Shown here one piece after another: positions 9,265 through 31,954 of a stretch of 38,239 nucleotides of DNA (position 1 is its first letter; each line of letters opens with the position of its first letter). This stretch comes from Verrucomicrobiota bacterium (GTDB lineage: Bacteria > Verrucomicrobiota > Verrucomicrobiia > Opitutales > Cerasicoccaceae), in the NCBI GenBank assembly GCA_039818205.1, contig JBCBUK010000024.1, positions 1 through 38,239 on the forward strand. Reading direction: 5' to 3'. Under the pieces are notes generated by a model, which made no database searches, was not told the origin of the DNA, and was given only the letters and a program-made list of their open reading frames with translations. The position numbers were made by a program, and so were the translations under genes.

Positions 9265-9295
9265 GCCAATTTAGTTTCACAAGGCAATTATCGCG

Positions 9296-12394: not shown

Positions 12395-12502
12395 GTATTT
12401 CATAACCCTTTCGCATTTGATTCGTACAAACCTTGTTCCCTCAGATGAGCCTGCCGTGAGCTATTTCATAAAAGCGAAAGTCGGGTCAGCGAAATTTAGT
12501 TT

Positions 12503-12592: not shown

Positions 12593-12607
12593 TCATCGTA
12601 AGCAACG

Positions 12608-15502: not shown

Positions 15503-15550
15503 CGAGATTACAAGCGCATCTCAAACACAATACAAACTGCCATAAATACT

Positions 15551-15634
15551 GTATGGTCGGGCTGAGAGGATTCGACAGCCATCGTTGAATACCAAACACT
15601 TACAAACCCGATGGGCGTTTAGTGGGCGGGATTT
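15551..15634 (-). repeat. att-like repeat R1: tRNA-Pro-like 3' end plus conserved arm
   Basis: 15554-15575 reads TCGAATCCTCTCAGCCCGACCA on the minus strand (T-loop, T-stem, acceptor strand, A73, CCA), followed by gttgaataccaaacacttacaaaccc and atgggcg/gtgggcg repeats. Confidence 0.9.
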
Positions 15635-15687
15635 GATGGCCAAGATCACCAAGAAAATTGAGAGTTGCAATTCCAAGTATTGAAATT

Positions 15688-16413
15688 TCAAAGATTTGGC
15701 AGAGGATCACCTAAGCGAATGCTTTTTCCGAAAACGCATGCAGCCCAAAAGCTATCACGTGGCATCCAGCTATGGATGAGCGAACACGAGGTTCTATAAA
15801 GCTCTTTCGGCAAACCCCTTATCGCAATGCTTTCAGCAGAATAGTCTAATTCAATCGAAGACAGCCCAACGTTGAGACCATGCCCAGTAAGTTTAACAAT
15901 CGCCTCTTTGATGGTCCACCCCCTAGCCAAAAAGAAAGGCTTCTCTTGATCCCTCAGATCGCCGAAAGCCGCGATCTCTGCTGGACTAAGTATCGTTTGA
16001 TACAGTTCACGCCAGTCAGTGAAACCAGGAACCGATTCGATATCGACACCGACTGAAAAGTCGCTGCTCATACCCAATAAAACTAAATCATCAGAGTGGC
16101 TCAGATTAAAATATGGCGCGTTCTCCAGACCAACTAGAGTTGGTTTGCCCCACGGCCCTCCTTCAAACTTTAGGTCGCTTGGACGGACCCCAATCAAGCG
16201 GGCCAGGCGATGCCGCAACCAAGCAGTTCGCACAATACATCGATCACGGTCACGTTGGTATTTGTACGCGTTCGCCCGCCGCATCTCCTTTTCAGTAAGC
16301 ATATCTGGCAACGAACTACTTCCCGCCAAGCGCGACACATCCAATAGCCAACATTGGCCGCTCGGCAACGGGTATGGCGATTCGTGATCGTCGAAGATGC
16401 TGAAGTCGTCCAT
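15688..16413 (-). CDS. Sfp-type 4'-phosphopantetheinyl transferase
   Basis: Motifs GKP, FNLSHS, VGVDIE, WTIKEAIVKLTGHGL; divergent from the NRPS. Confidence 0.93.
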   Translation of the reverse strand: MDDFSIFDDHESPYPLPSGQCWLLDVSRLAGSSSLPDMLTEKEMRRANAYKYQRDRDRCIVRTAWLRHRLARLIGVRPSDLKFEGGPWGKPTLVGLENAPYFNLSHSDDLVLLGMSSDFSVGVDIESVPGFTDWRELYQTILSPAEIAAFGDLRDQEKPFFLARGWTIKEAIVKLTGHGLNVGLSSIELDYSAESIAIRGLPKELYRTSCSLIHSWMPRDSFWAACVFGKSIRLGDPLPNL

Positions 16414-16539
16414 GTGATTGTCTTGAATAAATCGGTCCGATTGGCTATAGCGCGTCCTCTACCCTCGGACAGAACGTCGAATCCGCATATAATATAATTG
16501 ACCCAAGAATAGAGTAATCGTCACTTTCGCGCTACTACT

Positions 16540-19500
16540 ATGGAAACTACTAGCAAACGGGCACTGGTCAGCCGCATCAAGCGTTTATCTCCATTCGCGA
16601 GAGAGCGACTATACAGTCGACTGCGGGAGAAATCCTCGCCCACGGACGATGCCCAAGCTTCTCCAACCGATTCACAGAAATATTTTTGGCTGCTAGACTC
16701 GATCGAACCCCAGCCAGAATCGCTAAATCTCGCTTTCATGATTCAACTGGTCGGTGAAGATCCACAACGCAAACTGATCGAGAAAAGCATCCAATGGGTT
16801 GTTGGTCAAAACGATATCTTCCGGCAGCGGCTAATTGCGAACGGCGATGAAATAGAAATCGTGGTGGCTGACGAAGAAGTGCCGTTTCTCGTTCATCGAG
16901 TTAATATAACTGCGCCGGAGGGCAATCCGATGGACCTAGCTGTTACTCAACTGCAGGATGCGAATCGCCTGCCCTTCGACCTTAGCAAAGACCTCCCAAT
17001 ACGAACATACATTTTCACTTCGAACGAGTCGACCTACGCTATCGGATTTATCATTCATCACGTTGCCTTTGATGGATCATCGCTGAACCCCTTCTGGGAC
17101 CAGATTACGGATAACTATGAAGCATTGAGTCAGGGTCGAACGCCTCAGCTCCTCTCCGCCCAAAGCCAATACCGAGCCTATCAGCGCCGTCAAACCTCAC
17201 GCCGTTCGAATGAAATGATTGAGCAAGGATTGCAATTCTGGAAGGAACAGCTCGCGGGTGCCAACGGAAAACTCGAGTTGCATGATCGCAGGGACACCAA
17301 CATCAATAACAATTGCGAAGTGTTTGTCGATATTCCGTTGAAGTTACTTGCGCAGCTCGAGACTGCGGCCCGGCTGCAGCAAACGACTCCCTACATTCTT
17401 TCACTCGCAGCGTTCTACGGGTTGTTACAACGCCACACTGGCCAGAAGGATATCATGCTCGGCGCTCCCACTGCCATTCGCCCCGAAACAAGAGACGAGT
17501 CCGTCGTTGGCTGCACGCTGAATATGATCTGTTTGCGGCAAACGATTGATCCTCAATGCACCTATCAGTCCCTGGTCGATTCAACCCGGACAGTCCTGGA
17601 CGAAAGCTTGCAACATGCCGACTATCCATACTGGGAGATGTTGTCTGGCAACCAAGACCCTAAGAGCACTCAATTCGAAGCCTATTTTCAATACGGATCG
17701 TTTCGCGGCGAACTAAAGTCGCTCGGCCAAGCACTGGCGAGATTCCGTCCAGTGCCCGCAATCGCAACGTCACTCCCACTCACCGTGGAAATACGACCGG
17801 ATGCGGAGCACCCCACGCTGTCCATCAAGTACGATACGCAACGCATATCTCGGCGCTACGCGCAACGTCTTTGTCGCCGTTACCTAACCTTGCTGGAGTC
17901 CGCCATCAAACAGCCCAATACCTCGCTATGCGAACTGGCTCTATTGGATGCCGACGAACGCAAAGAATGGCAGGAACGGCTGGCCTTGAACGCCAAAGCC
18001 TATCCGTCCGATGCGACGATCCATAACCTCGTTGAACAGTCTGCAAACGGGCGCCCATCTCAAACGGCGATTTTATTTGGCTACGAACGCATCACATTCG
18101 GCGAACTTATCCAGCAGGTTAATCAAGTCGCCGCCAACCTCAGTGCTCAAGGCATCTGTACTGGCCAACGAGTGGGCGTTTCGCTGAAACGGCATCCCAA
18201 AATGATCGTCGCCATTTTAGCAACTATGCGGTGCGGCGCCGCCTATGTGCCATTGCCTCCCGAGAACCCATCGGATCGTATTCAGCTCATCGTTGCCGAT
18301 GCTGAGTTGGCAATGATCATCACGGATGCAGACTACGAATGGATCACGAGAATAACCGTCGCCACCGTTTCTTTAGACTCTCTTTTTGTTCAAACCGGCC
18401 ATGAACTCCCGGCGATCCCACCAACCGCTAGCGAGCCAGCTTACATCATGTATACGTCAGGCTCGACCGGAAAACCCAAGGGCGTAGTGATCGAACACCG
18501 CAGCGCAGTAAACTTCTTGGACAGCATGGCTGATGAGCTCGGAATCGAATCGGATGATCGACTTTTGGCACTGACCACAATCTCGTTCGACATATCGGTT
18601 CTCGAACTATTTCTCCCACTGATTCAAGGCGCCGAAATGGTCCTCGGAACGGAATCCATGCAACGGGAACCCGAGCAAATCATTCATGCGCTCGGACAAC
18701 ATGACATCACTCACTTTCAAGCCACCCCAACCACTTGGCAAATGCTCATCGAAGTCGGCTGGAAAGGAAAAGGGAATTTAAACATTCTCTGCGGTGGGGA
18801 GAGTATGGGTGAGGTCCTAGCTGCAAAGCTACTCGCGTGCGGCCGTTCTCTATGGAATCTCTATGGTCCAACGGAAACGACGGTTTGGTCGACGATTCAA
18901 CAGATTCATTCGGCCAACGAGATTAGCATTGGCCACCCGATCGCGAACACCACTGTCCTCATTGTCGATCGCGATTTGAAGCCGGTCCTGCCGTGTGTCG
19001 TTGGTGAGATCCTAATTGGTGGAGATGGACTAGCGCGGGAGTATTGGCGGCGTGACCAACTAACCGCTAAGCGCTTTATTCATCTCGAGATAGGCGATCA
19101 ACCGATGCGACTATACCGCACGGGCGACCTTGGGCGTTACAATGCGGAGGGTCACCTTGAGTGCCTCGGCCGCATGGATCACCAGATTAAGATTCGTGGG
19201 CATCGCATCGAAATCGAAGAGATCGAGCGCGTCGTCAACGACCTACCAATCAATGGGAAGGCAGTGGTCGTCGCCCATCAAGACCCGAACCAAGGCACGC
19301 AACTCGTCACCTATTATACAGGCGATCCTAGGGAAGGCGTCGAAGAATGGAAGCAGGTCCTGCTGCAAAAGCTCCCCGCAATCATGGTACCAAGACATTG
19401 GGTGAATCTTGAAACGTTTCCTAAGACCGCCAGCGGAAAGGTCGATCGAAAAATGCTGGCTGGCCTCACCGTATCCGAGATCCAACGGGAAACCGTATTT

Positions 19501-20577
19501 GTTGAACCACGGAGCGCAACCGAATCCAAACTGCTGCAAATCTGGCAGCAGGTCTTTAATTTGGGATCTATCAGTTGCACCGATGATTTCTTTTCACTCG
19601 GTGGCAACTCCTTGTCCGCCGTCCGTTTCACCGCACTCCTTAAGAACGAACACGGATTTTCGTTAACCTATCACCAGTTGTTCACGGGAAGAACCATCCA
19701 ACAGCTTGCCGCAACGCTTGATGCCGAACAGGACGAGGCAATCGAACCAAATGAGCAACCCCGCAAACACGTCGTCACCTTGCGATCCGGCACTGCCAAA
19801 CCAACCCTCGTAATGCTGCATGGCATGGGTGGTGAGATGTTTGACCATCAGAAATTCGCCGCCCGTTTGGAAGGAGACAACCCAATCTATGGCGTGATGA
19901 ATCCAGATGCCAATCGCCAGGAGAATCCAGCGCAATCATTCGAAGAGCTGACCGAAATCTATTGCCGAGAGCTGCTCGAGCACGGTTTAAAGTCCCCCTT
20001 CTGCCTCTTTGGCTATTCGCTCGGCGGCTTCCTGGCATTTGCCGTTGCCCACCGCTTTCAAACCCTGGGCATGCCCGCGCAACAACTCTACCTGATCGAT
20101 GCCATCCCAACCAACCTCCCGTTTTGGCTACGGATACCCGCATCAATCAACTTTCGAATCAATAAGCTGCTGGACCAGATGAAGGGCAGCAAAACAACCG
20201 CGTCGCCGGTAGCGCCAACCGAAGACAGGAGTGTCTCTGGGCAGGCGAAGACTACCGGACAGCAACCAATACGACGCCGAGAATTTTTCGCGTCACTACG
20301 TCGCCGCTACATTCCGAAGCCCCTACCGATCAATACGATACTCTTTCGGTCAACCCATAATCACATGAACCTCAAGTCATCCTGGGGATATTTGACCAAG
20401 TACCAAACCCGAACAATCGTCGTCGATCGCGAGCATCATACCTTCATGGACAACCGCTTTAATCCACCGTTCTACAAGATCTTCAATCAGATTTGGCACG
20501 AAGAGCAAGAGAAGCGGAAACAGCCACCATCCAGGGAATTAGGGCCAGCGCGAGCGCAGAACAAACGCACAACCTAA
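16540..20577 (+). CDS. Single-module NRPS C-A(Gly)-PCP-TE
   Basis: C: HHVAFDG. A: YTSGSTGKPKG, FDISVLEL, NLYGPTETTVWS, YRTGDL. PCP: FFSLGGNSL. TE: GYSLGG. Specificity code read by eye as DILQLGLVWK (glycine-type). Confidence 0.93.
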   Translation: METTSKRALVSRIKRLSPFARERLYSRLREKSSPTDDAQASPTDSQKYFWLLDSIEPQPESLNLAFMIQLVGEDPQRKLIEKSIQWVVGQNDIFRQRLIANGDEIEIVVADEEVPFLVHRVNITAPEGNPMDLAVTQLQDANRLPFDLSKDLPIRTYIFTSNESTYAIGFIIHHVAFDGSSLNPFWDQITDNYEALSQGRTPQLLSAQSQYRAYQRRQTSRRSNEMIEQGLQFWKEQLAGANGKLELHDRRDTNINNNCEVFVDIPLKLLAQLETAARLQQTTPYILSLAAFYGLLQRHTGQKDIMLGAPTAIRPETRDESVVGCTLNMICLRQTIDPQCTYQSLVDSTRTVLDESLQHADYPYWEMLSGNQDPKSTQFEAYFQYGSFRGELKSLGQALARFRPVPAIATSLPLTVEIRPDAEHPTLSIKYDTQRISRRYAQRLCRRYLTLLESAIKQPNTSLCELALLDADERKEWQERLALNAKAYPSDATIHNLVEQSANGRPSQTAILFGYERITFGELIQQVNQVAANLSAQGICTGQRVGVSLKRHPKMIVAILATMRCGAAYVPLPPENPSDRIQLIVADAELAMIITDADYEWITRITVATVSLDSLFVQTGHELPAIPPTASEPAYIMYTSGSTGKPKGVVIEHRSAVNFLDSMADELGIESDDRLLALTTISFDISVLELFLPLIQGAEMVLGTESMQREPEQIIHALGQHDITHFQATPTTWQMLIEVGWKGKGNLNILCGGESMGEVLAAKLLACGRSLWNLYGPTETTVWSTIQQIHSANEISIGHPIANTTVLIVDRDLKPVLPCVVGEILIGGDGLAREYWRRDQLTAKRFIHLEIGDQPMRLYRTGDLGRYNAEGHLECLGRMDHQIKIRGHRIEIEEIERVVNDLPINGKAVVVAHQDPNQGTQLVTYYTGDPREGVEEWKQVLLQKLPAIMVPRHWVNLETFPKTASGKVDRKMLAGLTVSEIQRETVFVEPRSATESKLLQIWQQVFNLGSISCTDDFFSLGGNSLSAVRFTALLKNEHGFSLTYHQLFTGRTIQQLAATLDAEQDEAIEPNEQPRKHVVTLRSGTAKPTLVMLHGMGGEMFDHQKFAARLEGDNPIYGVMNPDANRQENPAQSFEELTEIYCRELLEHGLKSPFCLFGYSLGGFLAFAVAHRFQTLGMPAQQLYLIDAIPTNLPFWLRIPASINFRINKLLDQMKGSKTTASPVAPTEDRSVSGQAKTTGQQPIRRREFFASLRRRYIPKPLPINTILFRSTHNHMNLKSSWGYLTKYQTRTIVVDREHHTFMDNRFNPPFYKIFNQIWHEEQEKRKQPPSRELGPARAQNKRTT

Positions 20578-20699
20578 ATGTGACATTTTCCGTTCCGAGG
20601 AAAATAGGACAGTACAGCCTTGAAAGACACTCAATGATTACCTATCATCAAAATCAGTGCTTTTCCCGCCCCATACTACAGCAAATCACCTAGCAAGGC

Positions 20700-22568
20700 A
20701 TGGTAGCTACAACACCAGACACGACCCTTCGGGAACGCATTGAGGGTATCGCTTCACAATCTTCTAACAACCATTTGTTGGAGGCGCCTGGCCATGAACC
20801 GCTTAGCTATGCGGCAGTACTCGAACTGATCGCGCACATTTCGCAGTATTTTCAAGACGCCAGTGCAAACTCCCATCCGCGAATTGCCATCGCCGTTACC
20901 GACTCGCCGCAAAGTGTCACCTGCTTCCTTGCCGCAATGTCCGCTGGCGTTGCCTGCCCGGTGAATCCCAGGGAGCGCTTGTCCAGCTATCGCGAGTATT
21001 TCCGCGAACTCAAACCGGATCTGCTAGTCTGGTCTCGCGATGCCAACGAAGCGGCAGTCGAAGCTGCCCAAGGATTGGCGTTGCCGGTTCACGAACTCGT
21101 ACGCCCGCCCAGCGGGCCCGCCGGCGAGTTCTCGCTCGAACAAATTCACGAAACGGCCACGGCCGCTCAGCGCCCTCAAGGCGCCGTTGAGGACATCGCA
21201 TTGATTCTGCCCACGTCGGGATCAACTGGCATGCCCAAGCGCGCGCCCCATCGCTTGCATCATCTCTGGACCACCGCCTGTAATACGGCAGCAACCTTGG
21301 AGCTCAGTGCGTCTGATCGAAATCTGCTAGCCATCCCAATGTTTCACGCCCACGGATTGGTCTCTGGTGTCCTCATGCCATTGGTGTCCGGCGGGACCAT
21401 TGTTTGCCCAGGCATTTTCGCAATTGAACACTGGGATGACTGGATGGCCACCTACCGCCCGACCTGGTATTCGGTCGGACCAACGGTTCATCGGGAGATC
21501 ATGGCGCACCTTCGAGAACGCGACGTGATGCGCCCCTACCCCGCCCTTCGTTTTGTGCGTTCGGGATCCGCGCCTCTTGAATCCAGCTTCATCCGGGAAG
21601 TGAATGAGCGCTTGGGAGTCCCATTAATAGAAGCCTACGGTTTGTCAGAAGCACCCCATGTCTCGTGCAATCCGATTCAATCACCTCGATCCGGGTCGGT
21701 CGGCCAATCAGTGGGTCCAAAGATCGCGATCATAGATGACAATGGTTGCGAACGCCCGACCGACGAGTGCGGTGAGATTGCCCTTAAAGGCGAAACGATT
21801 ATTCGAGGGTATGACGGTGAAGAGCAAGCTCCAGCCAAGCATGTAGACCAATGGTTTAGAACCGGTGACTACGGGCGGCTAGACGAAAATGGCTATCTGT
21901 ATATCGAAGGGAGAATCAAAGAGATCATCAATCGCGGTGGCGAGAAAGTCATGCCGCTGGAGGTCGATCGTGCGCTAGCCACGCATCCCAGTGTAAGCGG
22001 GGCATTATCATTCTCCGTTCCCCACCCGACCCTGGGGGAAGACATTGCGGCAGCTGTAACCCTAAGGGCTGGCAACAAAGTAACTGAGACGGAGCTACGA
22101 GCACACGCCTTGACTGCGCTAGGTTATATCAAATCCCCCTCCAGGATATTAATCGTCCCGTCATTTCCGACCGGTCCAACTGGGAAGCCTCTGCGCTCAA
22201 AGCTATGGGAAGCCTATGGGTCGACATTAGATGCTCCATATCGGGCGCCCGCCAACGATGCAGAGTCCATTATCTGCGAGCTATATGCCAGCGTGCTGCG
22301 ACTCGGTCAGGTGGGAGCCGATGACAATTTCTTTGTGCTAGGGGGCGACTCACTGAAAGCGCAACGGGTGATCGCACGCTTGAATGCGAAGTACACGCTT
22401 CATTGCAAAGCGAATCTCCTATTTCGCCATCCAACACCCGCGAACCTTGCCCGACAACTGACTGTCGAAATCGAGGAATCACGAGAAGTTGAAGCGCTGC
22501 TTGAGGAATTGAGGCAGCTGCCCCCAGAGGACTTGAATGACATCCTAAACGAAGCGGAGGCCTCCTGA
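20700..22568 (+). CDS. Acyl-adenylating enzyme (oxalate-CoA ligase AAE3/PCS60/Fum10p-like) fused to a carrier protein
   Basis: PMFHAHGL, PTWYSVGPTVH, LRFVRSGSAPL, IEAYGLSEAPH, GRIKEIINRGGEKV; C-terminal PCP FFVLGGDSL and an acidic docking-like tail. Confidence 0.85.
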   Translation: MVATTPDTTLRERIEGIASQSSNNHLLEAPGHEPLSYAAVLELIAHISQYFQDASANSHPRIAIAVTDSPQSVTCFLAAMSAGVACPVNPRERLSSYREYFRELKPDLLVWSRDANEAAVEAAQGLALPVHELVRPPSGPAGEFSLEQIHETATAAQRPQGAVEDIALILPTSGSTGMPKRAPHRLHHLWTTACNTAATLELSASDRNLLAIPMFHAHGLVSGVLMPLVSGGTIVCPGIFAIEHWDDWMATYRPTWYSVGPTVHREIMAHLRERDVMRPYPALRFVRSGSAPLESSFIREVNERLGVPLIEAYGLSEAPHVSCNPIQSPRSGSVGQSVGPKIAIIDDNGCERPTDECGEIALKGETIIRGYDGEEQAPAKHVDQWFRTGDYGRLDENGYLYIEGRIKEIINRGGEKVMPLEVDRALATHPSVSGALSFSVPHPTLGEDIAAAVTLRAGNKVTETELRAHALTALGYIKSPSRILIVPSFPTGPTGKPLRSKLWEAYGSTLDAPYRAPANDAESIICELYASVLRLGQVGADDNFFVLGGDSLKAQRVIARLNAKYTLHCKANLLFRHPTPANLARQLTVEIEESREVEALLEELRQLPPEDLNDILNEAEAS

Positions 22569-23338
22569 TGAAGAAACAACGTTTTCACGAAAGAAGCGCA
22601 GTCATTACCGGAGCCAGCCGCGGCATCGGCCGGGCGACGGCAATTGTGCTTGCTCGCGAAGGCGCCGATCTGCTCCTCCACGGTCGCGATGAAACTGCAC
22701 TAAATGGCCTTCAGCAGGAGCTTAACATCTATGGCGGTAACTACGCGGTTTGCATTGCTGATCTGGGGCAACCTGGCTACGCGGAGAAAATCGTTAGATC
22801 CGCGCAATGTGAACTCGGTCGGATCGATGTCTTGATTAACAACTGTGGCGGGGGCGTCGCGAAACAACCCTTTCATGAATTACCAGTGAATCAGCTGCAG
22901 AAAGTCTATCAACTCAACTTAGAGTCCGTATTCCTGCTGACTCAGCAGGTCATACCGGTAATGCTCAAGCAGCAGTACGGAAGAATTGTTAATGTGGCAT
23001 CCCTAGCCGGGCGCAAGTATAGCCCGTTAGCATGTGCTGACTATACGATGGCGAAAGCCGGGCTCATTGGGCTCACCCGACAGCTGGCGATGGAGTATGC
23101 CTCGCAGGGGATCGGCATCAATGCTGCTGCGCCGGGCATTACGTTGTCGGAGCGCATCGTAGATCGCTGGAATCAGAAAACGGATGAACAACGCAAACAA
23201 ATCGTTAGTGAGACTCCCATGGGTCGCCCCGCACAACTCGAAGAAGTCGCCCTCCCCATTGCCTTTCTTGCCTCCGATGAGGCAGCCTACATAACCGGCC
23301 ACACGTTGGACATCAACGGTGGCGCTATGATGAACTAG
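22568..23338 (+). CDS. Classical short-chain dehydrogenase/reductase (FabG-like)
   Basis: TGASRGIG, NNCG, YTMAK (YxxxK), ITGHTLDINGG; start overlaps the upstream stop. Confidence 0.92.
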   Translation: MKKQRFHERSAVITGASRGIGRATAIVLAREGADLLLHGRDETALNGLQQELNIYGGNYAVCIADLGQPGYAEKIVRSAQCELGRIDVLINNCGGGVAKQPFHELPVNQLQKVYQLNLESVFLLTQQVIPVMLKQQYGRIVNVASLAGRKYSPLACADYTMAKAGLIGLTRQLAMEYASQGIGINAAAPGITLSERIVDRWNQKTDEQRKQIVSETPMGRPAQLEEVALPIAFLASDEAAYITGHTLDINGGAMMN

Positions 23339-23340
23339 CC

Positions 23341-25128
23341 ATGGATACTACTGCTGATATACTTGCCAGATGGCTGAACCAAAACGGACATCAATCAGTC
23401 TTTAGCGTTCCTGGTCTCCAGATCGATCCAATCTGGCTGAACCTGATCAACGACCCGTTAATCAACCTAATCACCGCAACTCATGAAGCCGCCGCCGGAT
23501 TCATGGCTGACGGTTACGCTCGCAAATCGCGCGATTTGGGCGTGTGCCTTTCCATCGGTTCGGTGGGGTTAGCGAACCTGGCAATCGCCATTCTCACGGC
23601 GAAGTCCGACAATTCTCCGGTCATGTTTATCACCGGGGAACCACCAGCTCACTTGAACGGCTTTTTTCCGTTTCAAGATACGAGCCCGCAAGGCTCACAT
23701 GACCAAGCCTATATCAAGCCGTTGATCAAGCGCTCCTTTCAGATTACCAACCTAGCCACTATGGCGTCCGTACTCGACCAGGCGCGAAGCACGGCGCTTA
23801 GCTATCCCCGTGGCCCCGTGCACGTGTCGATTCCATTTGGCCTACCCCATCACACAACTGTGCCGAGTTCGATCCGCCCCCGGTCCGACCATGACCTTCC
23901 GCTATCACTCAACCGCGATATCTCAGTAATCATTGATCGCCTTCGTGAATGCCAAAATGCCGTAGCACTTATTGGTTACCCGAATCTTGAATCGCAAACG
24001 ATCCAACCCTTCCTTGAAAACTATCTGATCCCATTCGCGACGACGCTTGGCACGAAAGGACTCATCTCTGAATCCCACCCACTTAGTCTGGGGAACTTCG
24101 GCTTTGCTGGCAGTTCACTCGCGAATGAGGCCCTGTTGAGAGATGACATCGATTTGCTGCTTTGCCTAGGAGTTACCTTTGGCGAACGTAATACACTCAA
24201 CTGGAGCAGTGATCTTTTTCACAATCGCGATCTCATTGCAATCGGCTGTCAAGAATCTGGCCATGAACCCAGCCGTTCAACGACGTCGATCAATCATAAC
24301 CCTGCGATCGTATTGAGGGAGCTCAGAAAGCGAGCATCAGCCTTACAACCTCTTAAAGCTTCATCCCCAAAACGAGCCACCTGGCTCAGCAATACATTCA
24401 CAGCAAATTGCCACATAGACGTCACCATACCGCGGGCTGATGACGAAACCATCGACCCGAACGGGATCATGTCCGCGCTGAGACGACTGCCAGAAAGCAA
24501 TAGCATCGTCATAGACGCAGGATCGGCCCGTACCCTATTTGGCAAGTATTGGGAATGCCACTCACCACATACCTTTTTCTCATCCGCCGCAACGGGCTCC
24601 ATGGGTTGGTCACTTGGAGCCGCTGCCGGCATCGCGCTAGCTGGAAAAAAGGATCCCGTAACGATCGTCATCGGCGATGGCTCACTACTCATGTACGGGA
24701 ATGAACTCCGGACGCTCAAGGAGTCCAATACCCCAGCTGTGATTGTTCTACTCAACAACAGTGCCTACGGATCAATTCACAAGCGGTGTGAGAATGACCA
24801 AACAAAGCAAGATGCTTCGCTCCAATCCATCAATTGGGCAGCCTACGCGGCTTCCTTCAACATTGAGTATCGCCTTATCGAACGGGCTGACGATATGAAA
24901 GAACCCATTGATCGGTTCATCAGCAATTGGCACGACAAACAGCACTCACCGATGCTTCTGGACGTGCGAGTTCCGATCGACTGGGTCCCCACTAGCGACA
25001 AAAACGGTTATAACACGGAGCCCTACAGCGCGGCATCGAGCCGCCAAGCACCAATGGGAGCCGAACACGCCTACACGATTACAAGAGAGCCCAGAGTCAC
25101 CCAACACCCACCCACAATCAAAGCCTAG
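23341..25128 (+). CDS. Thiamine-pyrophosphate-dependent enzyme (acetolactate synthase-like family)
   Basis: HEAAAGFMADGYAR, GPVHVSIP, GSMGWSLGAAAG, and the GDGSLLM...LNN TPP-binding motif. Confidence 0.9.
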   Translation: MDTTADILARWLNQNGHQSVFSVPGLQIDPIWLNLINDPLINLITATHEAAAGFMADGYARKSRDLGVCLSIGSVGLANLAIAILTAKSDNSPVMFITGEPPAHLNGFFPFQDTSPQGSHDQAYIKPLIKRSFQITNLATMASVLDQARSTALSYPRGPVHVSIPFGLPHHTTVPSSIRPRSDHDLPLSLNRDISVIIDRLRECQNAVALIGYPNLESQTIQPFLENYLIPFATTLGTKGLISESHPLSLGNFGFAGSSLANEALLRDDIDLLLCLGVTFGERNTLNWSSDLFHNRDLIAIGCQESGHEPSRSTTSINHNPAIVLRELRKRASALQPLKASSPKRATWLSNTFTANCHIDVTIPRADDETIDPNGIMSALRRLPESNSIVIDAGSARTLFGKYWECHSPHTFFSSAATGSMGWSLGAAAGIALAGKKDPVTIVIGDGSLLMYGNELRTLKESNTPAVIVLLNNSAYGSIHKRCENDQTKQDASLQSINWAAYAASFNIEYRLIERADDMKEPIDRFISNWHDKQHSPMLLDVRVPIDWVPTSDKNGYNTEPYSAASSRQAPMGAEHAYTITREPRVTQHPPTIKA

Positions 25129-25262
25129 CCAGTCCCGCACTACTGTTTCAACACATGATCAGACTAGAAAGCTAACCAGTCGCAGTTTCCAAGGTCGGCA
25201 CGCACCAACCAACGAGCCACTTCTACGGCAACTCGACCTAAGCAGCTAAGCGAGCTTATCCC

Positions 25263-25347
25263 GTATCGTCGGGCTGAGAGGATTCGAACCTCAAAGTTGA
25301 ATACCAAACACTTACAAACCCCGGTGGGCGTTTGGTGGGCGGGATTT
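25263..25347 (-). repeat. att-like repeat R2: tRNA-Pro-like 3' end plus conserved arm
   Basis: gtatcgtcgggctgagaggattcgaacctc retains the full T-arm (GAGGTTCGAATCCTC on the minus strand); the arm is nearly identical to R1, with gtgggcg at 25324 and 25335. Confidence 0.9.
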
Positions 25348-26788
25348 CAAGGGGGACGTCGGTCAATCCGATAAGGGTCGGGCGACAGCTAATTGCTTGA
25401 GCAAACTATACGATTCAAGTCTCATAGGGTATTCAACCATACTGTTTCCATGTCCGACCTAATACATCCCAAAGTTAAAGAATTCTCAGCGGATGTCGCC
25501 AAAGAATTCAATCTTGATGAGAAATTCACAGAGTTCGTGCTTTCTGACAACAAGCCGCTTTGCTTCGAGTATCGTGTCGAGAATCCTTCGAATGGATGGA
25601 CTTGTTATTTACCCGACGAGGTCGAGGTTGCCTACCCCCTTTGGTCATGCAATGCAGATCAAACATTGCTCTGTGTAGACAAAGGCGGTTACTGGTTCGC
25701 TCGCGGCTATCATGACGACCACGACCTGAACAGAATTTCAAACTCTCACCAGGGGCTACTCGCCGATCTATTCATTTCATTGTATGAGTCTGAAGAAACC
25801 GATTTCGCATTAAAAGAAGCTGCCTCGGCTAGTGGATTTAGATTTCTGGAAAAAGTACTCGAATTTCTTGAACAAGAACACGAGGACCACTACGGCGAGT
25901 GCGAAAAATTCGTTCTCGAGGTAGACATACTGGCAGCGGAACCACCAACGGAAGAAGAGCTGAAACGAGTCGAAAACTTTCTATACATTAGCAAAGAGGA
26001 AACCACCAAGAGAGAAATTCCAGCAACCGCTATCGAATCACTTAAAAATAGAGGCCTGGTCGTATCAGAACCTTATCCGCTATCGCACTCTGAGTATGCC
26101 TGCGGATTAAGAATCTTGAAACCGATTGCGGCGGGCGGGAACAGTCACCCATTCGAGATCAGAACAGTCGATGAAACCAACACTGATGGGCCTATTTTCT
26201 ATCTCTTCAAACAAGATGATGAGTGGGCTCTTGAAACAATACTCCAGGTGGGTAGCAAACCACCCATTAAAACTTACCAGGATGTTGATGGAGCAATCGA
26301 CTATCTCATTGATCTATTCTTCGGGGCGCCAGACAACATGCGCGCCCTTAACCAATCCCCATACGATAACCGTCAAGAGGTCATCGATTACGCCATCACT
26401 GTAGCGAACCAGACGTTAGCGAATACCATCAGCCTAACAGAGGGAGTCATAAGCCTTGCGAGTTTATCGCAATATCTTGGGCCTCAAAAAGATCTTGTTC
26501 GACCTTTTCACGGATGGAGCGGTCGGCTCAGCCTCTTCCCGGTAGGAGACGTCCGCAAGCGTTGGAATCCCGATGCACTTGCGAAATTTGATGCTGAACG
26601 AGATCAGGCTGAAGCACCCCTTAGAGCCATTGTAACCGAAACTTGTCAGCACCTGATACAACAGCTTAGTTAACTAGAAGCGTTGGTGTTAAATTAATAC
26701 TTCTTGGAGCTAGCCCAAGCTTCCAAGAACATACTCACAAGGCCATTAATCAATCATTAAGTGGTTGCTTTTCAATTACTTAAGAAAC
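25266..26788. mobile_element. Integrase-less cassette B (~1.5 kb, one gene) between R2 and R3
   Basis: Bounded by att-like repeats; a single long ORF. Confidence 0.6.
25450..26673 (+). CDS. Hypothetical acidic protein, apparently three fused modules, with a C-terminal DUF2489-like domain
   Basis: ATG 25450 preferred over TTG 25393; C-terminal EGVISLASL...FPVGDVRKRWNPDALAKFDAER resembles DUF2489 as recalled. Confidence 0.6.
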   Translation: MSDLIHPKVKEFSADVAKEFNLDEKFTEFVLSDNKPLCFEYRVENPSNGWTCYLPDEVEVAYPLWSCNADQTLLCVDKGGYWFARGYHDDHDLNRISNSHQGLLADLFISLYESEETDFALKEAASASGFRFLEKVLEFLEQEHEDHYGECEKFVLEVDILAAEPPTEEELKRVENFLYISKEETTKREIPATAIESLKNRGLVVSEPYPLSHSEYACGLRILKPIAAGGNSHPFEIRTVDETNTDGPIFYLFKQDDEWALETILQVGSKPPIKTYQDVDGAIDYLIDLFFGAPDNMRALNQSPYDNRQEVIDYAITVANQTLANTISLTEGVISLASLSQYLGPQKDLVRPFHGWSGRLSLFPVGDVRKRWNPDALAKFDAERDQAEAPLRAIVTETCQHLIQQLS

Positions 26789-26858
26789 TTGTCCGGCTGA
26801 GAGGATTCGACACCCAGCGTTGACTACCGAACACTCACAAATCCCGGTGGGCGGAATT
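26789..26858 (-). repeat. att-like repeat R3 (more diverged)
   Basis: ttgtccggctgagaggattcga is 20/22 identical to R1; then gttgactaccgaacactcacaaatcccggtgggcggaatt with one gtgggcg unit. Confidence 0.85.
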
Positions 26859-26992
26859 CTACACCATCAATAGCGCGCCAACGCCTGAGGTCCCGACTTG
26901 AATCTCCGGGAAAGCCAAAGAACCTGAAACCTCGTCCTGAACTTGGACTGCACCGTATTCTCCTTAAAATTGATCCACCACCGACTAAATTT

Positions 26993-28372
26993 TCAATACG
27001 GAACCAATAACGACGCGGTATACTTTCGTTTTTGCTTCTCGAGCAGGCGTTGCACCTGAGCTTTCTCATCGATTCCAAGCTCAACGACCTGAACCGTCTG
27101 CTCCATCTCACTCAGTTGCTCGAAGCTGGCAACCATCGTGGCATTTTCAATCAACTGCATTCGCTCCTCAACATCATCGACTTCAAAAGCCCACTTGGTT
27201 GCTGCAACGGGATCGCTTGCCAACAAATGCGTTGAGGTGGCCTTCGCTCCAGCGTCATGAAACTCGGGATTGTCTTGGTTCTGCAACCACACCAATGCCG
27301 CATCGTAATCCTTTCGCAACCAACTACTGATTGCTGTCTCCGCCACGTCGGCATTGCCACCAGAATCCAACTGCTCCAACACCCCGATGACCTGTTTAGG
27401 AACCATCTCAGAAAGGGGTCCAATCATTTTGATTACCGACTGTGGTGGAAGTGCTTCCGGTCGATCCAAAACCGAAGCCAGGAGTCGCTCAGGATCTTGG
27501 TATCCAAACTCTATCACCAAGTGGTCGATGGCGCTATCGCGGAGAGATTCATTTGGCTGGTTGAGGCTCCACTGAATGGCACTATTCAAATTCTGCGTTC
27601 CCAAATGGCGAAGGATCGGTTGAACCAACTGCCGCTGGAGCACTTCGTTCTCTAGCTGACCAAAGAGCTCCTTCGCATCCTCTGGATCGACTTCAGCATA
27701 AGCGGTAAAGGCCGCCACGTAACCTTGAGTAAGCGCGTACTCGGAGATATCGTAGGCTTCAAACTCTGCAAGGGCGGTGAAGGCTTGTTGAACATCCGCT
27801 TTGGCCCAACCGGATGCCAGAGCAATCACGAGCTGATCGCGGTCCTCCCGCAATCGAAGCATACCCAAATAACGGGTCGCTTCTCTAGGCGCCTGCCTCG
27901 CCATTTCTTCAAGAACCAGAATCTGCTTGCGGGCATATCCCTCCTTGGAAAAAAGGCTCTGATTTCTTTGCAACCAGTCGTACGCGGCGACGGGATCGCG
28001 GAATCGCCAAGCCTCAACCAGTTCATTCTTGTAACGTTCCAAAGTCGCGGGCCCACGACTAAGCATAAGCCTCGCGGCCGCCCCGGGGTCTCTTCTCAAC
28101 ACTTCCATTAAGAGAAACCCATCCAAGGACTGCAGAATTTCCTGCAGTTGCTCACCCGTCAGACCACTCGCATCCAGCGACTCCACAATGACATCAGGCG
28201 TCGAGGATGGAACGAGTAGTTCGATCTGATCCTCTTCGTTTTGACTGGGCATCGCCACCTCGCGAACAATTACCTGTTCCTCTACCGATGACGGAGCAAC
28301 AAAGAAACCACGAACGTAGAATCCAACTGCTAAGCTAGCAAGAGAAACCAGTGCCAAACTAAGAAGCTTCAT
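26993..28372 (-). CDS. Membrane-anchored alpha-helical repeat protein (W-x-x-x-DP-x-AA-x-x-W type)
   Basis: N-terminal TM from ATG 28372 (MKLLSLALVSLASLAVGFYV); repeats WRFRDPVAAYDWL, WAKADVQQA, WLRKDYDAALVWL, SDPVAATKWA. Confidence 0.75.
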   Translation of the reverse strand: MKLLSLALVSLASLAVGFYVRGFFVAPSSVEEQVIVREVAMPSQNEEDQIELLVPSSTPDVIVESLDASGLTGEQLQEILQSLDGFLLMEVLRRDPGAAARLMLSRGPATLERYKNELVEAWRFRDPVAAYDWLQRNQSLFSKEGYARKQILVLEEMARQAPREATRYLGMLRLREDRDQLVIALASGWAKADVQQAFTALAEFEAYDISEYALTQGYVAAFTAYAEVDPEDAKELFGQLENEVLQRQLVQPILRHLGTQNLNSAIQWSLNQPNESLRDSAIDHLVIEFGYQDPERLLASVLDRPEALPPQSVIKMIGPLSEMVPKQVIGVLEQLDSGGNADVAETAISSWLRKDYDAALVWLQNQDNPEFHDAGAKATSTHLLASDPVAATKWAFEVDDVEERMQLIENATMVASFEQLSEMEQTVQVVELGIDEKAQVQRLLEKQKRKYTASLLVPY

Positions 28373-28396
28373 AACAAAAAAATTGGGGTAGCGGTT

Positions 28397-28430
28397 AAAA
28401 CCAGCCTTCCCGATCAACGCGGAAGGCTGG
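28397..28430 (-). terminator. Hairpin/intrinsic terminator between the GH16 and helical-repeat genes
   Basis: Perfect 10-bp stem CCAGCCTTCC/GGAAGGCTGG followed by TTTT on the minus strand. Confidence 0.65.
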
Positions 28431-28458
28431 CTGCAAACTCTCATCTTGCGCTAGACGA

Positions 28459-29346
28459 TTACTTCCACTTGTAGTGATAGAAGTAGTCGACGTGCATCCA
28501 AGAGTCACCCTTATAATAGGTCCAAGATGCGGGCACGAAGTACGGATTACTCAAAATCCAATACTGGCGCGAACGGCAGGTATAGAGCAGCTTGCCGGGC
28601 GTGTTCTCGTAACTCGAATACCATATTTTTGGCCCTCGCTTGACCCATCTACCATTCGTAAATTCCCAAGTTTGCATGTAGGAATCGCCTCGGTATTCGA
28701 GACCGATTATCTTCCAACTTGAGTGATCGGGTGCTGCATATTCATCGAAGAAATGAGGCCATTGCGATCTGGGGAGGGTAACGTTATTCACTCGTGGAAT
28801 CATGTGTGAATCCCAGCCATATTTGCCATTCGACCATTCCATGAAATCGATCTCAACCCAATTCTTAGGGACTGGGTTCAATTGTTTTCCAGCCATGTTA
28901 AAAGGTGAACTCCAAATCGCCGGATGCCACGGCGTAGAATTCCTGCCGTTAAAGCCACCAATCAGCCGGAACTTCGCGATATAGAAGCCATAGTGAGCAG
29001 AGTTCTGGGACGAGATACCACCGCCTTTTTTAGTACTAGCAGAACCTCGAAGGCTCACGAACGACGTGCCGTTCTGATTTACGATATAGGCATACGATGA
29101 ACCAACTCCAACACCAACAGTACTCGGATCACCTAGTGTTCGATAGGTCCACTTCGAAAAATCAAGGGAATTAAAGTTATCGGATACTGACCAATCAATG
29201 CTGGGCTGGTATTTAGAAGCAACCTCAGCTGGTGGCTTCGTGGGGTCGGTGTTCGCACTCAGCTGAAAAGGCACCGTAAAGGCACCGAAGGCGAGACAAG
29301 CAGTAAGGAGTCTCACTTTATTTCTTATCGGGGATATATTCTTCAT
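28459..29346 (-). CDS. Secreted glycoside hydrolase family 16-like protein
   Basis: Signal peptide; SDNFNSLDFSKW, HYGFYIAKF, WHPAIW, catalytic EIDFME (ExDxxE), MHVDYF. Confidence 0.8.
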   Translation of the reverse strand: MKNISPIRNKVRLLTACLAFGAFTVPFQLSANTDPTKPPAEVASKYQPSIDWSVSDNFNSLDFSKWTYRTLGDPSTVGVGVGSSYAYIVNQNGTSFVSLRGSASTKKGGGISSQNSAHYGFYIAKFRLIGGFNGRNSTPWHPAIWSSPFNMAGKQLNPVPKNWVEIDFMEWSNGKYGWDSHMIPRVNNVTLPRSQWPHFFDEYAAPDHSSWKIIGLEYRGDSYMQTWEFTNGRWVKRGPKIWYSSYENTPGKLLYTCRSRQYWILSNPYFVPASWTYYKGDSWMHVDYFYHYKWK

Positions 29347-30053
29347 ATGAGGTATATTTGTTTGTATTACATTTCGCAGTGGTTGCGAAAAACTAAAAAC
29401 CCCATGAATGGGACCAAAAGGTCCGCCTTCCGATACTCATCATGAAATGTGTATTGGAGGCAGAAAGAAACACCGTGATTAGATGCAACTTGGGGCAGGT
29501 TAAATTGGGTAGAGAAAAACCAAAACATACAAGTTTACATGCGAAAATCATACGCCAATATGCGTATATTTCATGCACATTCACGCAATGCCACCGGGCG
29601 ATCAAATCACGACCAACAAACGGCATGTACCAACCCATAAGGTAGTCGGTCAGCTTTCTGTCCCGTCGCAACTAAGACGAAAGCCGCCCCTTCCGTATCA
29701 TCGGAAAGGACCAGCTAAATACAATTGTTCAAACTAAGCGTTCACTTCGACATGCTGTTATAGAAGGAGCAAACAGGCATTCTGAAGTCGCCATGGCGGT
29801 AGACCCAACTCGCATGATACCAATATCCTAAATGCGAGAAGCCTCATTACATCAACAGCTACTCACAATTCCCAATTTTTGAAGCTAAAACACTCATTAA
29901 GCACTCTTTACTGCCGGTAAAGGGAAAAACTGGTTCACAACCACAACAGTTAGGCCCTGGACATACAAAAATGATCCACATACCAAGTTGAAAAACTCTC
30001 GAGAACCAACACAAGCCCCCTCAATGCGCTGTCATTCAACAGCTCACAAAAAC

Positions 30054-30070
30054 TGGTCGGGCTGAGAGGA
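30054..30070 (-). repeat. att repeat R4: 17-bp tRNA-Pro-like 3' end marking the prophage boundary
   Basis: tggtcgggctgagagga is identical to 15554-15570; followed by a different arm with cggtta direct repeats at 30109 and 30120. Confidence 0.85.
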
Positions 30071-30172
30071 CCCGCCCAATCTCATTATTAAAAGGGCTTC
30101 TTGGCTTTCGGTTAAAAAACGGTTACTGTTTCTCAGAGTAAAACAGAGTCCGGACCGCCTTCCAGGTCTCCC

Positions 30173-30202
30173 AAAGAAAAAGCTGCCCATGTCTAAGGCA
30201 GC
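30173..30202 (-). terminator. Intrinsic terminator of the prophage late operon
   Basis: The minus strand reads GCTGCC-ttagacatg-GGCAGC-TTTTTCTTT. Confidence 0.75.
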
Positions 30203-30267
30203 ATTTCAAGTGGACGCACGCATTCGGCCAGTGCTCTCCAGCGGCTATTCTTTCGGCGGTCTTGGCA

Positions 30268-30528
30268 TCATTCTCCATCCCGCGCCAATGTGATCCGCAA
30301 CTCCATGATTGCTTCTTTCAGCTCTTCGGTAGCCTCGGTTTGCCTGGTGATCGATTGGCGGAACTCTGATATCGCGTGGCTCTGGCTGAGGTTCGTATCC
30401 GAATTCTCGCGGGTCTCGTCCCTAACCTGCCGGTAATCGCTGCCGACTATGTAAGCAGCAAAGACGATCGCAACCGCCCCGCCAATGACAATCCAAGTTT
30501 GAAGCTTCTGCTTTGCGTCCGTGGTCAT
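30268..30528 (-). CDS. Phage membrane protein (one TM + coiled coil; holin- or i-spanin-like)
   Basis: TM WIVIGGAVAIVFAAYIVG then a heptad-like tail; 4-nt overlap with the upstream gene. Confidence 0.6.
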   Translation of the reverse strand: MTTDAKQKLQTWIVIGGAVAIVFAAYIVGSDYRQVRDETRENSDTNLSQSHAISEFRQSITRQTEATEELKEAIMELRITLARDGE

Positions 30529-30962
30529 TTCAAAACGCGCCCGTAGGCGACTACTTTGCCAATGTATTGTGTTTCTGTGAGCACCAGAGAGTCGGGTAGA
30601 GTATTGTTGTCCCCCTGGGTCATCCAGTGACTTCCTAGCCGCTGAACAAGTCGGTGCACAGTAGGCATGCCCCCATGCTGGTAGACGACAATGTCGCCCT
30701 CCTGAAGGTCGCTGAACGGGTAGTATCGATCGATCGCAATCGGGTCACCTGGCTTGAGCGTTGGAAGCATCGAGTTTCCGTAGTGCTCATTAGAAATGAC
30801 TGAGTTAAAGGCAATGCCCTCTTGCTTGACTGGCGGGGTCGAGCTGCGCTGCTTGATTGGTTGCGATGAGCACCCAGTAAGCATCAGCACGAGAAACGCA
30901 ACCACAAGCGCCGCCGCGATGCCGATCAGAATATCAACTGCGCTGGAACACCAATCTTTCAT
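30525..30962 (-). CDS. S26-family (S26B/SipW-like) signal peptidase, predicted lipoprotein
   Basis: GNSMLPTL (Ser), GDIVVY, VHRLV (His), TQGDNN...D, YIGKV; lipobox LTGC after a hydrophobic stretch. Confidence 0.8.
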   Translation of the reverse strand: MKDWCSSAVDILIGIAAALVVAFLVLMLTGCSSQPIKQRSSTPPVKQEGIAFNSVISNEHYGNSMLPTLKPGDPIAIDRYYPFSDLQEGDIVVYQHGGMPTVHRLVQRLGSHWMTQGDNNTLPDSLVLTETQYIGKVVAYGRVLK

Positions 30963-30963
30963 G

Positions 30964-31446
30964 TTATGCGCGCCGAGCTACTTGATTCCCGAAGTAGAAG
31001 CCGATGATTGCAATCAGCGCGATGTTTCGAACCGGGTCAAAGACGCTGACAACGGCATCAGGCGCAGAGCTACCGGTCTTGATCCAATTGATATGTTCCA
31101 TTGATACCTGCCAGGGCCAAAAGCCGTCAGAGGTGTCATAGTAGCCGATTACGATTTGGATTGGATCGCCAGTGAAGGCTGCCGCTAAAGCAGGGAAAGA
31201 AGGCCAAAGGAAATAGAAGGCGACAACGATCAGAGCGATTGCGCTCCGAACCCAATAGAAGCCTTTCCATTTGCCTTCATATTGGCGAGCTTGTCCTGTC
31301 GACTCCTCCGTTGCCTGAGCCTGACCGGCTCGATACTTGCGCTCCTCAGCGAGATCGGCAGCTCGCTGTGACCACATCGTCATGATCGCCGAGCCCACTA
31401 AAGAGAGAACGGCAGTGATTGCTTCGGGTGAAAGAAATGGATTCAT
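30964..31446 (-). CDS. Three-TM holin-like phage membrane protein
   Basis: Three hydrophobic segments; C-terminal IIGFYFGNQVARR resembles 3TM (GTA-type) holins. Confidence 0.55.
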   Translation of the reverse strand: MNPFLSPEAITAVLSLVGSAIMTMWSQRAADLAEERKYRAGQAQATEESTGQARQYEGKWKGFYWVRSAIALIVVAFYFLWPSFPALAAAFTGDPIQIVIGYYDTSDGFWPWQVSMEHINWIKTGSSAPDAVVSVFDPVRNIALIAIIGFYFGNQVARRA

Positions 31447-31610
31447 GGCTTGGTGAAGTCTAGAGTTGTTCCGCTATCAGATTGGGTGGCAGGTGGACGA
31501 ACCTCCTGCGTCGGCATTTCATTCGTTAGGTCAATGACCCTGCCGCCGGTTGCGCAACCCGCCAACAGGGCGAGAGAAACCGCGAAGGTGATCAGCAATA
31601 TTGCTTTCAT
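31443..31610 (-). CDS. Small Pro/Thr-rich phage lipoprotein (55 aa; o-spanin-like?)
   Basis: MKAILLITFAVSLALLAGC lipobox from ATG 31610; the longer ORF-track start overlaps the upstream gene. Confidence 0.65.
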   Translation of the reverse strand: MKAILLITFAVSLALLAGCATGGRVIDLTNEMPTQEVRPPATQSDSGTTLDFTKP

Positions 31611-31639
31611 GCCTAAGGAGTATAATGCCTGTGACTTAA

Positions 31640-31948
31640 CTATGAGTCCGCGATGATCCCAGCCCCGCCAGTCTCTCTCAGGCGGTCGCGCAAGGCCTCT
31701 ATCGTGACAGTCTGATTTGCGATGACATCGCGCATGCTCTCGACTGCGTCGCGCAAGGCCTCGCATTCCGCTTGTGTTGGATCCGCGGAGAACGTGAGCG
31801 CCGCGACTCCACCATCGGCGGGAAGGCTCGCGTCATCCACATCAGCAACCGCAGCCAGAAGGTCCAAGGGCTCAACCTCGAATGTTCCGTTGTCGGAACC
31901 CGATCTTACTTTGAGAAGTTTTCCAATATCACTATTTTCAATTGCCAT
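31640..31948 (-). CDS. Small phage fibre-like protein (head-fibre-type coiled coil)
   Basis: AAVADV...ALRDAV...IEALRDRLRETGGAGII pattern recalled from phage head-fibre/whisker proteins. Confidence 0.45.
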   Translation of the reverse strand: MAIENSDIGKLLKVRSGSDNGTFEVEPLDLLAAVADVDDASLPADGGVAALTFSADPTQAECEALRDAVESMRDVIANQTVTIEALRDRLRETGGAGIIADS

Positions 31949-31954
31949 GATTCT

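Follow-up and report, generated by a model that had tools for sequence, protein, structure and literature searches.

A tandem array of tRNA-Pro(GGG) ends in a Verrucomicrobiota genome, probably formed by accretion of decayed islands

The window analysed here, 38,239 nucleotides (nt) long, is the entire contig C24 (JBCBUK010000024.1) of a Verrucomicrobiota bacterium of the family Cerasicoccaceae (assembly GCA_039818205.1), whose genome (G000) comprises 4.85 Mb in 66 contigs. Four co-oriented copies of the 3' end of tRNA-Pro(GGG), named R1 to R4, divide part of the window into three blocks of unrelated genes that encode no recombinase, next to the right end of a prophage. With a probability of about 0.65, we explain this array as the site-specific accretion of decayed islands at tRNA-Pro(GGG). 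The copies R1-R3 share an arm that points to a single integrase family, while R4 appears to belong to the prophage.

The tRNA-Pro(GGG) ends and their common arm

The four copies begin at 15554, 25266, 26789 and 30054 on the minus strand, where a preliminary description of the window had located them.

15554..15634, minus strand: R1, tRNA-Pro(GGG) end from the T-loop (22/22) with arm, tandem CGCCCA repeat
25266..25347, minus strand: R2, tRNA-Pro(GGG) end (26/27) with arm, tandem CGCCCAC-n4-CGCCCAC
26789..26858, minus strand: R3, tRNA-Pro(GGG) end from the T-loop (20/22) with arm, one CGCCCAC unit
30054..30126, minus strand: R4, 17-nt tRNA-Pro(GGG) end with a tandem GTAACC-type arm repeat (30109-30126); likely right attachment site (attR) of the prophage

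Aligned with the intact tRNA-Pro(GGG), R1 and R4 are perfect (22/22 and 17/17 nt), while R2 (26/27) and R3 (20/22) are slightly degenerate, as was described earlier, and both have lost the exact CCA end. Outside C24, a search of 9.63 Mb (both strands) that allowed up to 2 mismatches found the 17-mer once, in the tRNA-Pro(GGG) gene itself. Four copies within 14.5 kb therefore far exceed chance. An intact gene with the same end exists, and the view that the repeats are attachment (att) scars of tRNA-Pro is supported.

The copies R1-R3 continue into the same non-tRNA arm, with identities of 94% over 52 nt for R1/R2 and 85% over 48 nt for R1/R3. The arms of R1 and R2 contain the tandem CGCCCA-n4-CGCCCA and that of R3 a single unit, and the likeness stops a few bases past the tandem repeat in all three. 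Within the genome, the arm is confined to C24 (blastn). This common arm probably points to one integrase family behind the three blocks, which supports the single integrase specificity proposed earlier. Each of R1-R3 may be described as a putative attR-like feature, consisting of a tRNA end and the common arm, mutated in R2 and R3.

The intervals between the copies measure 9,695, 1,506 and 3,248 nt. No significant left arm common to the blocks was found in the 60 nt after R4, R3 and R2 (33-91% of 1000 shuffles gave an equal score), and the 300 nt examined for left arms contain no exact CGCCCA unit. Rfam gave no match. An integration host factor-like site in the R1/R2 arm, with 1 mismatch to the consensus and a background of 0.2 per 240 nt, was too weak and was not used.

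The intact tRNA gene, the prophage and R4

An intact tRNA-Pro and an integrase were to be sought beyond the right edge of the window, and both were found on contig C13, with prophage genes next to them. The genome has two tRNA-Pro genes, of which the GGG copy (C13:106824-106901) ends in the 17-mer of R4. Directly behind it lies a gene for a 381-amino-acid (aa) tyrosine-recombinase-like protein with weak XerC/D matches, followed by phage early genes up to the end of C13. In the window, the array is adjoined by the right end of a prophage.

30127..38239, minus strand: prophage right end with tail-tip, NlpC/P60, DUF1833 and S24 genes (Pfam), truncated at the end of the contig

The C13 integrase has a GTAACCA-type tandem that overlaps its start, and a similar GTAACC-type tandem is located 39-56 nt from R4. 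The relative G014 has an integrase 70% identical to it over 378 aa, behind a tRNA-Pro with the same end; a GTAACC-type tandem is found at the start of this integrase, and another contig of G014 has an end with the 17-nt core and the same tandem. Tandem 7-nt repeats near the att sites are the rule, by eye, for tRNA-linked integrases of this family. We assign R4 to the prophage because its arm repeats match the type of the C13 and G014 integrases and not that of R1-R3. Thus R4 is likely the attR of a prophage whose integrase differs from the builder of R1-R3. The link between C13 and the window crosses an assembly gap and is drawn from the arm type of R4.

It is very improbable that the integrase of this neighbouring prophage made or moves the blocks. 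As a candidate it gains from its position behind tRNA-Pro(GGG), the same target, and from the adjacency of the prophage to the array. However, its GTAACC-type arm repeat occurs at R4 only, and its shared core is 17 nt long, compared with 22-27 nt at R1-R3.

Since synteny behind tRNA-Pro(GGG) is not conserved in the congeners, it did not serve to locate the native flank. The prophage behind tRNA-Pro(GGG) carries a response regulator and a sensor kinase beside its S24 repressor (L001:8055-12646), and a prophage on contig C29 has a similar module. A gene for tRNA-Pro(CGG) is present in all five congeners and was not called in G000, where it is either lost or unassembled.

Searches for a recombinase and for the arm

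The earlier statement that no interval encodes a recombinase agrees with all searches made here (Pfam, NCBIfam, tblastn and profile search). Pfam found no recombinase among the 31 open reading frames (ORFs) of the window. No integrase remnant was detected in it by tblastn with the 19 integrases of the genome (best E 0.017), nor by an integrase profile with stops read as X, which gave nothing at E<=1. Integrase, transfer, replication and packaging genes are also missing from the block ORFs by Pfam and NCBIfam.

In the genome as a whole, tyrosine-recombinase frames number 22 by an iterated profile, 19 by a 20-sequence alignment and 12 by Pfam, with none on C24. An exact tandem CGCCCA within 500 nt was found at 0/22 of these frames, and one frame has a copy with one mismatch. 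This inventory may be incomplete, as the first profile missed the C29 integrase, the assembly has gaps and divergent integrases could escape. The C29 enzyme (L173, near 13700-14000) is a divergent tyrosine integrase missed by Pfam as well, and it is preceded by a reversed piece of tRNA-Lys. The lone resolvase-family gene of the genome is located on C43.

The tandem CGCCCA gave 17 matches in 8/16 genomes of the family, one of them near an integrase, in G008. This one was rejected, since it is located inside a downstream ORF of a transfer-messenger RNA (tmRNA) island with another arm. The locus C1:118726, flagged by a motif scan near a tandem CGCCCA, reads as a transcription regulator and was also rejected. 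An ATG after the R1 arm was considered as an integrase start; it opens 15 codons and is better read as the reverse strand of a transposase remnant.

Outside the genome, blastn of R2 with its arm against 60 relatives matched the tRNA alone, apart from two short hits to the arm that have no tRNA end beside them. A pattern of arm plus core occurred in 1/401 genomes of the order, the window's own, so the arm search proposed earlier returned C24 alone in this genome and nothing in the 400 others. A strict arm pattern, an exact and insensitive match, found nothing in species-representative genomes, and the arm patterns gave 0 in both scans of viral contigs. Six metagenome matches do not run into a tRNA-Pro end, and the matches in phage and plasmid records are to the tRNA part or due to chance. 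These scans, being mostly exact-match, are evidence of the rarity of the arm and not of its absence.

Tests of mobility

The preliminary description had offered two possibilities for the array, an integron-like cassette platform or a satellite family mobilised in trans, and neither was upheld. The array is not an integron, nor a cluster of attC sites lacking an integron integrase (CALIN). No attC-like fold was found on either strand of R1-R3 (z from -1.9 to +1.0, no shared structure), and the integron-integrase model TIGR02249 gave 9 matches in the assembly, 0 of them above cut-off. Two of the regions below cut-off, C39:7537-8115 and C12:1678-1992, match opposite ends of this model, and short ORFs lie on the opposite strand beside the C39 fragment; together the two fragments are possibly a split integron.

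What speaks against the satellite interpretation is the lack of any integrase found with the arm, the lack of a common left arm and the likely deletion scar at R1 described below. A more specific form of it supposes minimal cassettes that lacked an integrase from the start and depend for their movement on a helper with CGCCCAC arms acting in trans, so that arm and tRNA end form the whole att site. We regard this as unlikely. It would account for the single point, just past the tandem repeat, at which the likeness of R1-R3 ends, for the lack of an integrase fragment in any block, and for block 2, which is one gene with short flanks. The predominance of integrase-free intervals in relatives and a weak likeness downstream of R4 and R3, both given below, also fit. 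However, no helper is seen among the 22 frames of the genome, the arm is missing from the 400 other genomes of the order and from the other collections searched, no significant left arm is shared, and the cores of R2 and R3 are mutated. The attC-like fold is lacking too, as is an excised joint in the one run with the DNA.

The check for circular junctions, suggested earlier, could be made in part. No excised junction was seen in one run, whose contigs span R0-R1 and R2-R4 at a depth of 24-27 (R0 is a fifth end, described below). This run, probably of the source sample, is kept as contigs, and two other runs (X2 and X3) contain almost nothing of the stretch. Because contigs drop rare variants, the missing junctions are weak evidence. 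If the blocks still excised with a borrowed integrase, the array would matter much more.

Stacked tRNA-Pro ends in relatives

Copies of the tRNA-Pro end are stacked behind tRNA-Pro genes in several of the 16 genomes of the family (pattern search). Five relatives contain 16 closed tRNA-Pro intervals, for which the two ends are on the same contig (G002 3, G010 4, G005 4, G001 4, G015 1). By the integrase profile, 13 of the 16 are without a tyrosine integrase, 1 contains a fragment and 2 contain an intact one. Not counted were the ends of G003, which have their partners on different contigs, a doubtful end in G010 and a decayed end in G002.

In G010, two integrase-free ends share an arm of about 190 nt. 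At one end the 5' remnant of a transposase is fused to the arm, and at the other the transposase codons start right after the CCA. This pattern is the expected leftover of deletions through an island.

The R0 end and the transposase remnants

A fifth tRNA-Pro end, R0, and the block behind it (block 0) were overlooked in the preliminary description. R0 is co-oriented with R1-R4, and it is accompanied in the window by remnants of rve-type transposase genes.

12377..12473, minus strand: R0, 18-nt end, 17/18 to tRNA-Pro(TGG), with a different arm that is shared with congeners
12506-12592: last 29 codons of an rve-type transposase, in block 0, upstream of R0
15638-15755, minus strand: degraded start of an rve-type transposase gene together with its upstream flank, cut and fused to the R1 arm; likely a deletion scar
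3723..3975, minus strand: second 5' remnant of the same rve-type transposase family, farther out in the island; 3723-3932 matches the transposase at E 2e-13

The remnant at R1 stops after about ten codons, at the arm. It is collinear with 3800-4020 (0/1000 shuffles reach the score) and more weakly with two other transposase copies (87/1000 and 14/1000 shuffles). An intact transposase of 378 aa is found at G001:C27:15095-16228. The transposase at R0-type ends has an rve_3 domain above cut-off and falls below the cut-offs of IS3 (95.8 of 160 bits) and IS481 (76.2 of 224 bits).

R0 is located 111 nt behind the last transposase codons. The arm of R0 recurs in 4/5 congeners and shows no relation to the arm of R1-R3; in R0-type ends generally the arm consists of 2-3 degenerate hairpin modules. 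From seven genomes, 17 R0-type ends were gathered by pattern, blast and eye, two of them with less than 700 nt of upstream DNA, and at 6/17 a co-oriented transposase C-terminus precedes the end by 101-228 nt. The same letters foreign to the host recur in most of these ends. For three of them, a single host tRNA end comes within one mismatch, and a fourth differs by one mismatch from either host tRNA end. Loci of the family are window 12377-12592, L053, L050, L048, L038, L231, L228, L229, L052 and L045, with L046, L237, L238, L047 and L235 in addition.

In three cases, as judged by eye, an R0-type end runs into the same DNA that immediately adjoins an intact tRNA-Pro. One left-end sequence recurs in three settings: after tRNA-Pro(GGG) and after an R0-type end in G002, and after tRNA-Pro(TGG) in G000. 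Since the same DNA follows both R0-type ends and intact tRNA-Pro, these elements would seem to have been inserted exactly at the CCA. A long target-site duplication was rejected as the sole cause of the R0-type ends, because most of them carry the same non-host letters across genomes. R0 and block 0 likely belong to a separate family of elements anchored at tRNA-Pro. The transposase may have made the R0-type ends, or it may ride at att sites.

Homing to tRNAs by all rve family members was rejected: a tRNA-Pro-like end was found at 0/76 distant loci of the family, and any tRNA in the stretch covered at 12/76. At L235:7702-7944 (G015:C4), only 166 nt separate tRNA-Pro(CGG) from a following R0-type end whose 18-mer is of GGG type, so that this is an empty mini-element. 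A second rve-type subfamily (L152, L159, L166 and L162 in G005 and G002) has clear terminal inverted repeats of about 25 nt and is apparently an ordinary unclassified insertion sequence, often inside tRNA-Pro arrays.

It might be asked whether the rve-type DDE transposase, in place of a tyrosine integrase, was the builder of R1-R3 and R0 alike. Remnants of it touch both R1 and R0, and the six C-termini near R0-type ends are in keeping with such a role. This is highly unlikely, however: the arms of R1-R3 are unrelated to the R0-type arms, R2 and R3 have no transposase remnant, the distant family members lack such an end, and R1-R3 contain genuine tRNA sequence of the T-loop, with tandem arm repeats that resemble the att sites of tyrosine integrases.

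A wider proposal treats the tRNA-Pro genes of this verrucomicrobial family as cassette docks for trans recombinases, with R1-R3 as one-armed cassettes and R0 as a member of a tRNA-homing rve-type DDE lineage whose right end would imitate the tRNA-Pro 3' end, so that cargo is inserted directly behind the CCA. We hold this to be improbable. If a DDE transposase homing to tRNA-Pro did make the R0-type ends, genes would be captured in a way not yet described, which might also serve as a tool for site-specific insertion. Our literature searches found no tRNA-homing, cargo-carrying insertion sequence, and those for DDE or IS481 elements targeting tRNA gave nothing on the subject by title or abstract start.

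Proposed origin of the array

Signs of decay are present in the array: R2 and R3 are without the exact CCA end, and a transposase remnant is fused to the R1 arm. The failure to detect a left arm common to the blocks, the mostly integrase-free intervals of the five relatives and the transposase-marked ends of G010 also speak for decay. From the repeats, the right-hand arm of R1-R3, the missing recombinase, the tRNA and integrase on C13 and the arm match of R4, all of them observed directly, we infer a builder, an order of insertion, deletions and the present immobility of the blocks as follows. Three islands with one family of tyrosine integrase would have been inserted in turn at tRNA-Pro(GGG). 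The builder would have recognised tandem CGCCCAC arm sites, with a crossover in or just before the T-loop, and each island would have left its arm and a tRNA end as attR. Deletions, some of them via the rve-type insertion sequence, would then have taken the integrase and the left arm, so that cargo and attR stayed. The prophage with another integrase (GTAACC arms, 17-nt core) would have come last and pushed the array off the tRNA, while R0 and block 0 would derive from their separate family. The blocks would now be fixed passengers, with at most rare movement within a larger excision.

Several points weigh against this explanation. Three islands of the same family must each lose the integrase and the left arm with no fragment left. 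The builder of R1-R3 is deduced and not seen, because an integrase-bearing element with their arm was found in no collection searched. The core mismatches from outermost to innermost are 0 in R1, 1 in R2 and 2 in R3; these are small numbers, and a perfect outermost core with the most altered one innermost is the wrong order for simple push-out. The 26 nt after R4 and after R3 are weakly alike (123/5000 in the background, best of 15 pairs). Among relatives, three integrase-positive tRNA-Pro ends in G013 and G014 are outside the 16 intervals, their partner ends being on another contig. Finally, the tRNA contig C13 and the window are not joined in the assembly graph, where C13 is linked to C58, a contig that also belongs to another prophage, and the only neighbour of C24 is a contig of 532 nt.

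The reversed order of decay, R1<R2<R3, would fit a composite island that was stacked elsewhere, or later blocks that were inserted into the outer att copy, with a single tRNA-proximal integrase lost later. One integrase loss then suffices, and tandem transfer of cis-mobilizable elements (CIMEs) with integrative and conjugative elements and insertion into resident att sites are described in PMC5704250. Nevertheless, a left arm of its own would still be required for each of blocks 2 and 1, and none is seen; the GC content differs among the blocks, and no related composite was found in the 60 relatives or the 400 other genomes of the order. We judge this course of events quite unlikely.

Comparison with known systems

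The proposed accretion has precedents. The route from integration through decay to a CIME and accretion is set out in PMC5704250. Like CIMEs, the blocks have no integration genes, adjoin a functional-looking neighbour, here the prophage, and probably stand in tandem at one tRNA end. The array would be placed at the end of its target gene by four co-oriented copies of one tRNA end, the tRNA being on another contig and the link being the R4 arm type. However, CIMEs as described there keep both attL and attR, and here the right arm alone is recognisable. Because the left arm is not identified, we speak of likeness to CIMEs and not of strict membership, and cis-mobilisation is doubtful because the neighbouring prophage uses a different arm.

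The ssrA islands of Dehalococcoides, 15 without an integration module and 16 with it (PMC3146451), are also tandem islands bounded by copies of an RNA-gene 3' end; a conserved motif that is not part of the RNA immediately precedes these copies, and the crossover is in the T-loop region. They differ in targeting tmRNA and in being built, according to the same source, by a serine recombinase, whereas the target here is tRNA-Pro and the builder is deduced. In Prochlorococcus, islands with partial tRNAs and decayed elements are described (bioRxiv 10.1101/2020.12.28.424599), and the additive islands of Alteromonas have duplicated tRNA ends (PMC5217437). The tycheposons of the former work and the Alteromonas islands share with our array a marine bacterial host, successive insertion at tRNAs including tRNA-Pro, and degenerate remnants (bioRxiv 10.1101/2020.12.28.424599; PMC5217437). 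Tycheposons, in contrast, encode an integrase and often replication genes (bioRxiv 10.1101/2020.12.28.424599), and the blocks encode neither.

Integron arrays and CALINs resemble the array in their unrelated cargo, one recombination site per unit and no integrase alongside (PMC11389934). Their sites are attC hairpins, while those of the array are tRNA ends with direct-repeat arms, and unlike integron cassettes the units are not co-oriented and one is a divergent operon of 9.7 kb (PMC11389934).

Literature searches returned no report combining Verrucomicrobia, genomic island, tRNA-Pro and integrase, and the term integrase-less was used in none of the 15 listed of 27 matching papers; closer cases may exist in supplementary lists of islands. 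As read here, the array involves no new mechanism, accretion being a known way in which bacteria pile up genes. It is a clear case, in a little-studied phylum, of a tRNA gene that gathers foreign genes, including an orphan biosynthetic cluster, by repeated insertion and decay. For the annotation of islands it is of use, since predictors that rely on integrases would overlook these blocks.

Gene content of the blocks

Blocks 1, 2 and 3 hold 5, 1 and 2 genes, spread over both strands. Annotations are from Pfam and NCBIfam.

15571..25265, no strand: block 1, 9,695 nt including the R1 arm, 52.9% GC
15688-16413, minus strand: phosphopantetheinyl transferase (PPTase), block 1
16540-20577, plus strand: nonribosomal peptide synthetase (NRPS) C-A-T-TE, block 1
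20700-22568, plus strand: A-T protein, block 1
22568-23338, plus strand: short-chain dehydrogenase/reductase (SDR), block 1
23341-25128, plus strand: thiamine pyrophosphate (TPP) enzyme, block 1
25283..26788, no strand: block 2, 1,506 nt including the R2 arm, 46.3% GC; lone ORF with short flanks
25393-26673, plus strand: 426-aa ORF, block 2; no confident family
26806..30053, no strand: block 3, 3,248 nt including the R3 arm, 48.8% GC; two ORFs
26993-28444, minus strand: 483-aa ORF, block 3; no family; like unnamed Verrucomicrobiota clusters (Atlas, 0.92)
28459-29346, minus strand: 295-aa ORF, block 3; no family
12394..15553, no strand: block 0, 3,160 nt; TPR ORF and transposase remnant
12608-15502, minus strand: 964-aa TPR ORF, block 0

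The intervals had been said to hold complete, unrelated cargo. Their sizes and the unrelatedness of their genes stand; the 9.7-kb block, however, is not purely complete cargo because of the rve-type transposase remnant at 15638-15755. The genes at 15688-25128 form an orphan biosynthetic cluster of PPTase, C-A-T-TE NRPS, A-T protein, SDR and TPP enzyme. Relatives of the A-T protein are at most 41% identical among the best 120 of 628 matches.

The Atlas leads for the 426-aa protein were rejected, their score of 0.75 being at the level of chance. The 295-aa protein (28459-29346) carries a motif EIDFME known from family 16 glycoside hydrolases; it has no Pfam or NCBIfam match. PADLOC found no match among 25 proteins.

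The region 1-12376 of the window has no gene-length DNA match in the five congeners and is probably further island sequence. It contains DUF4331 and TPR genes and an ECF sigma/ChrR pair. At 9916-12300, three ORFs in a row may be parts of one fibronectin-III gene, and the ORF at the left edge of the window has an internal repeat of 291 nt.

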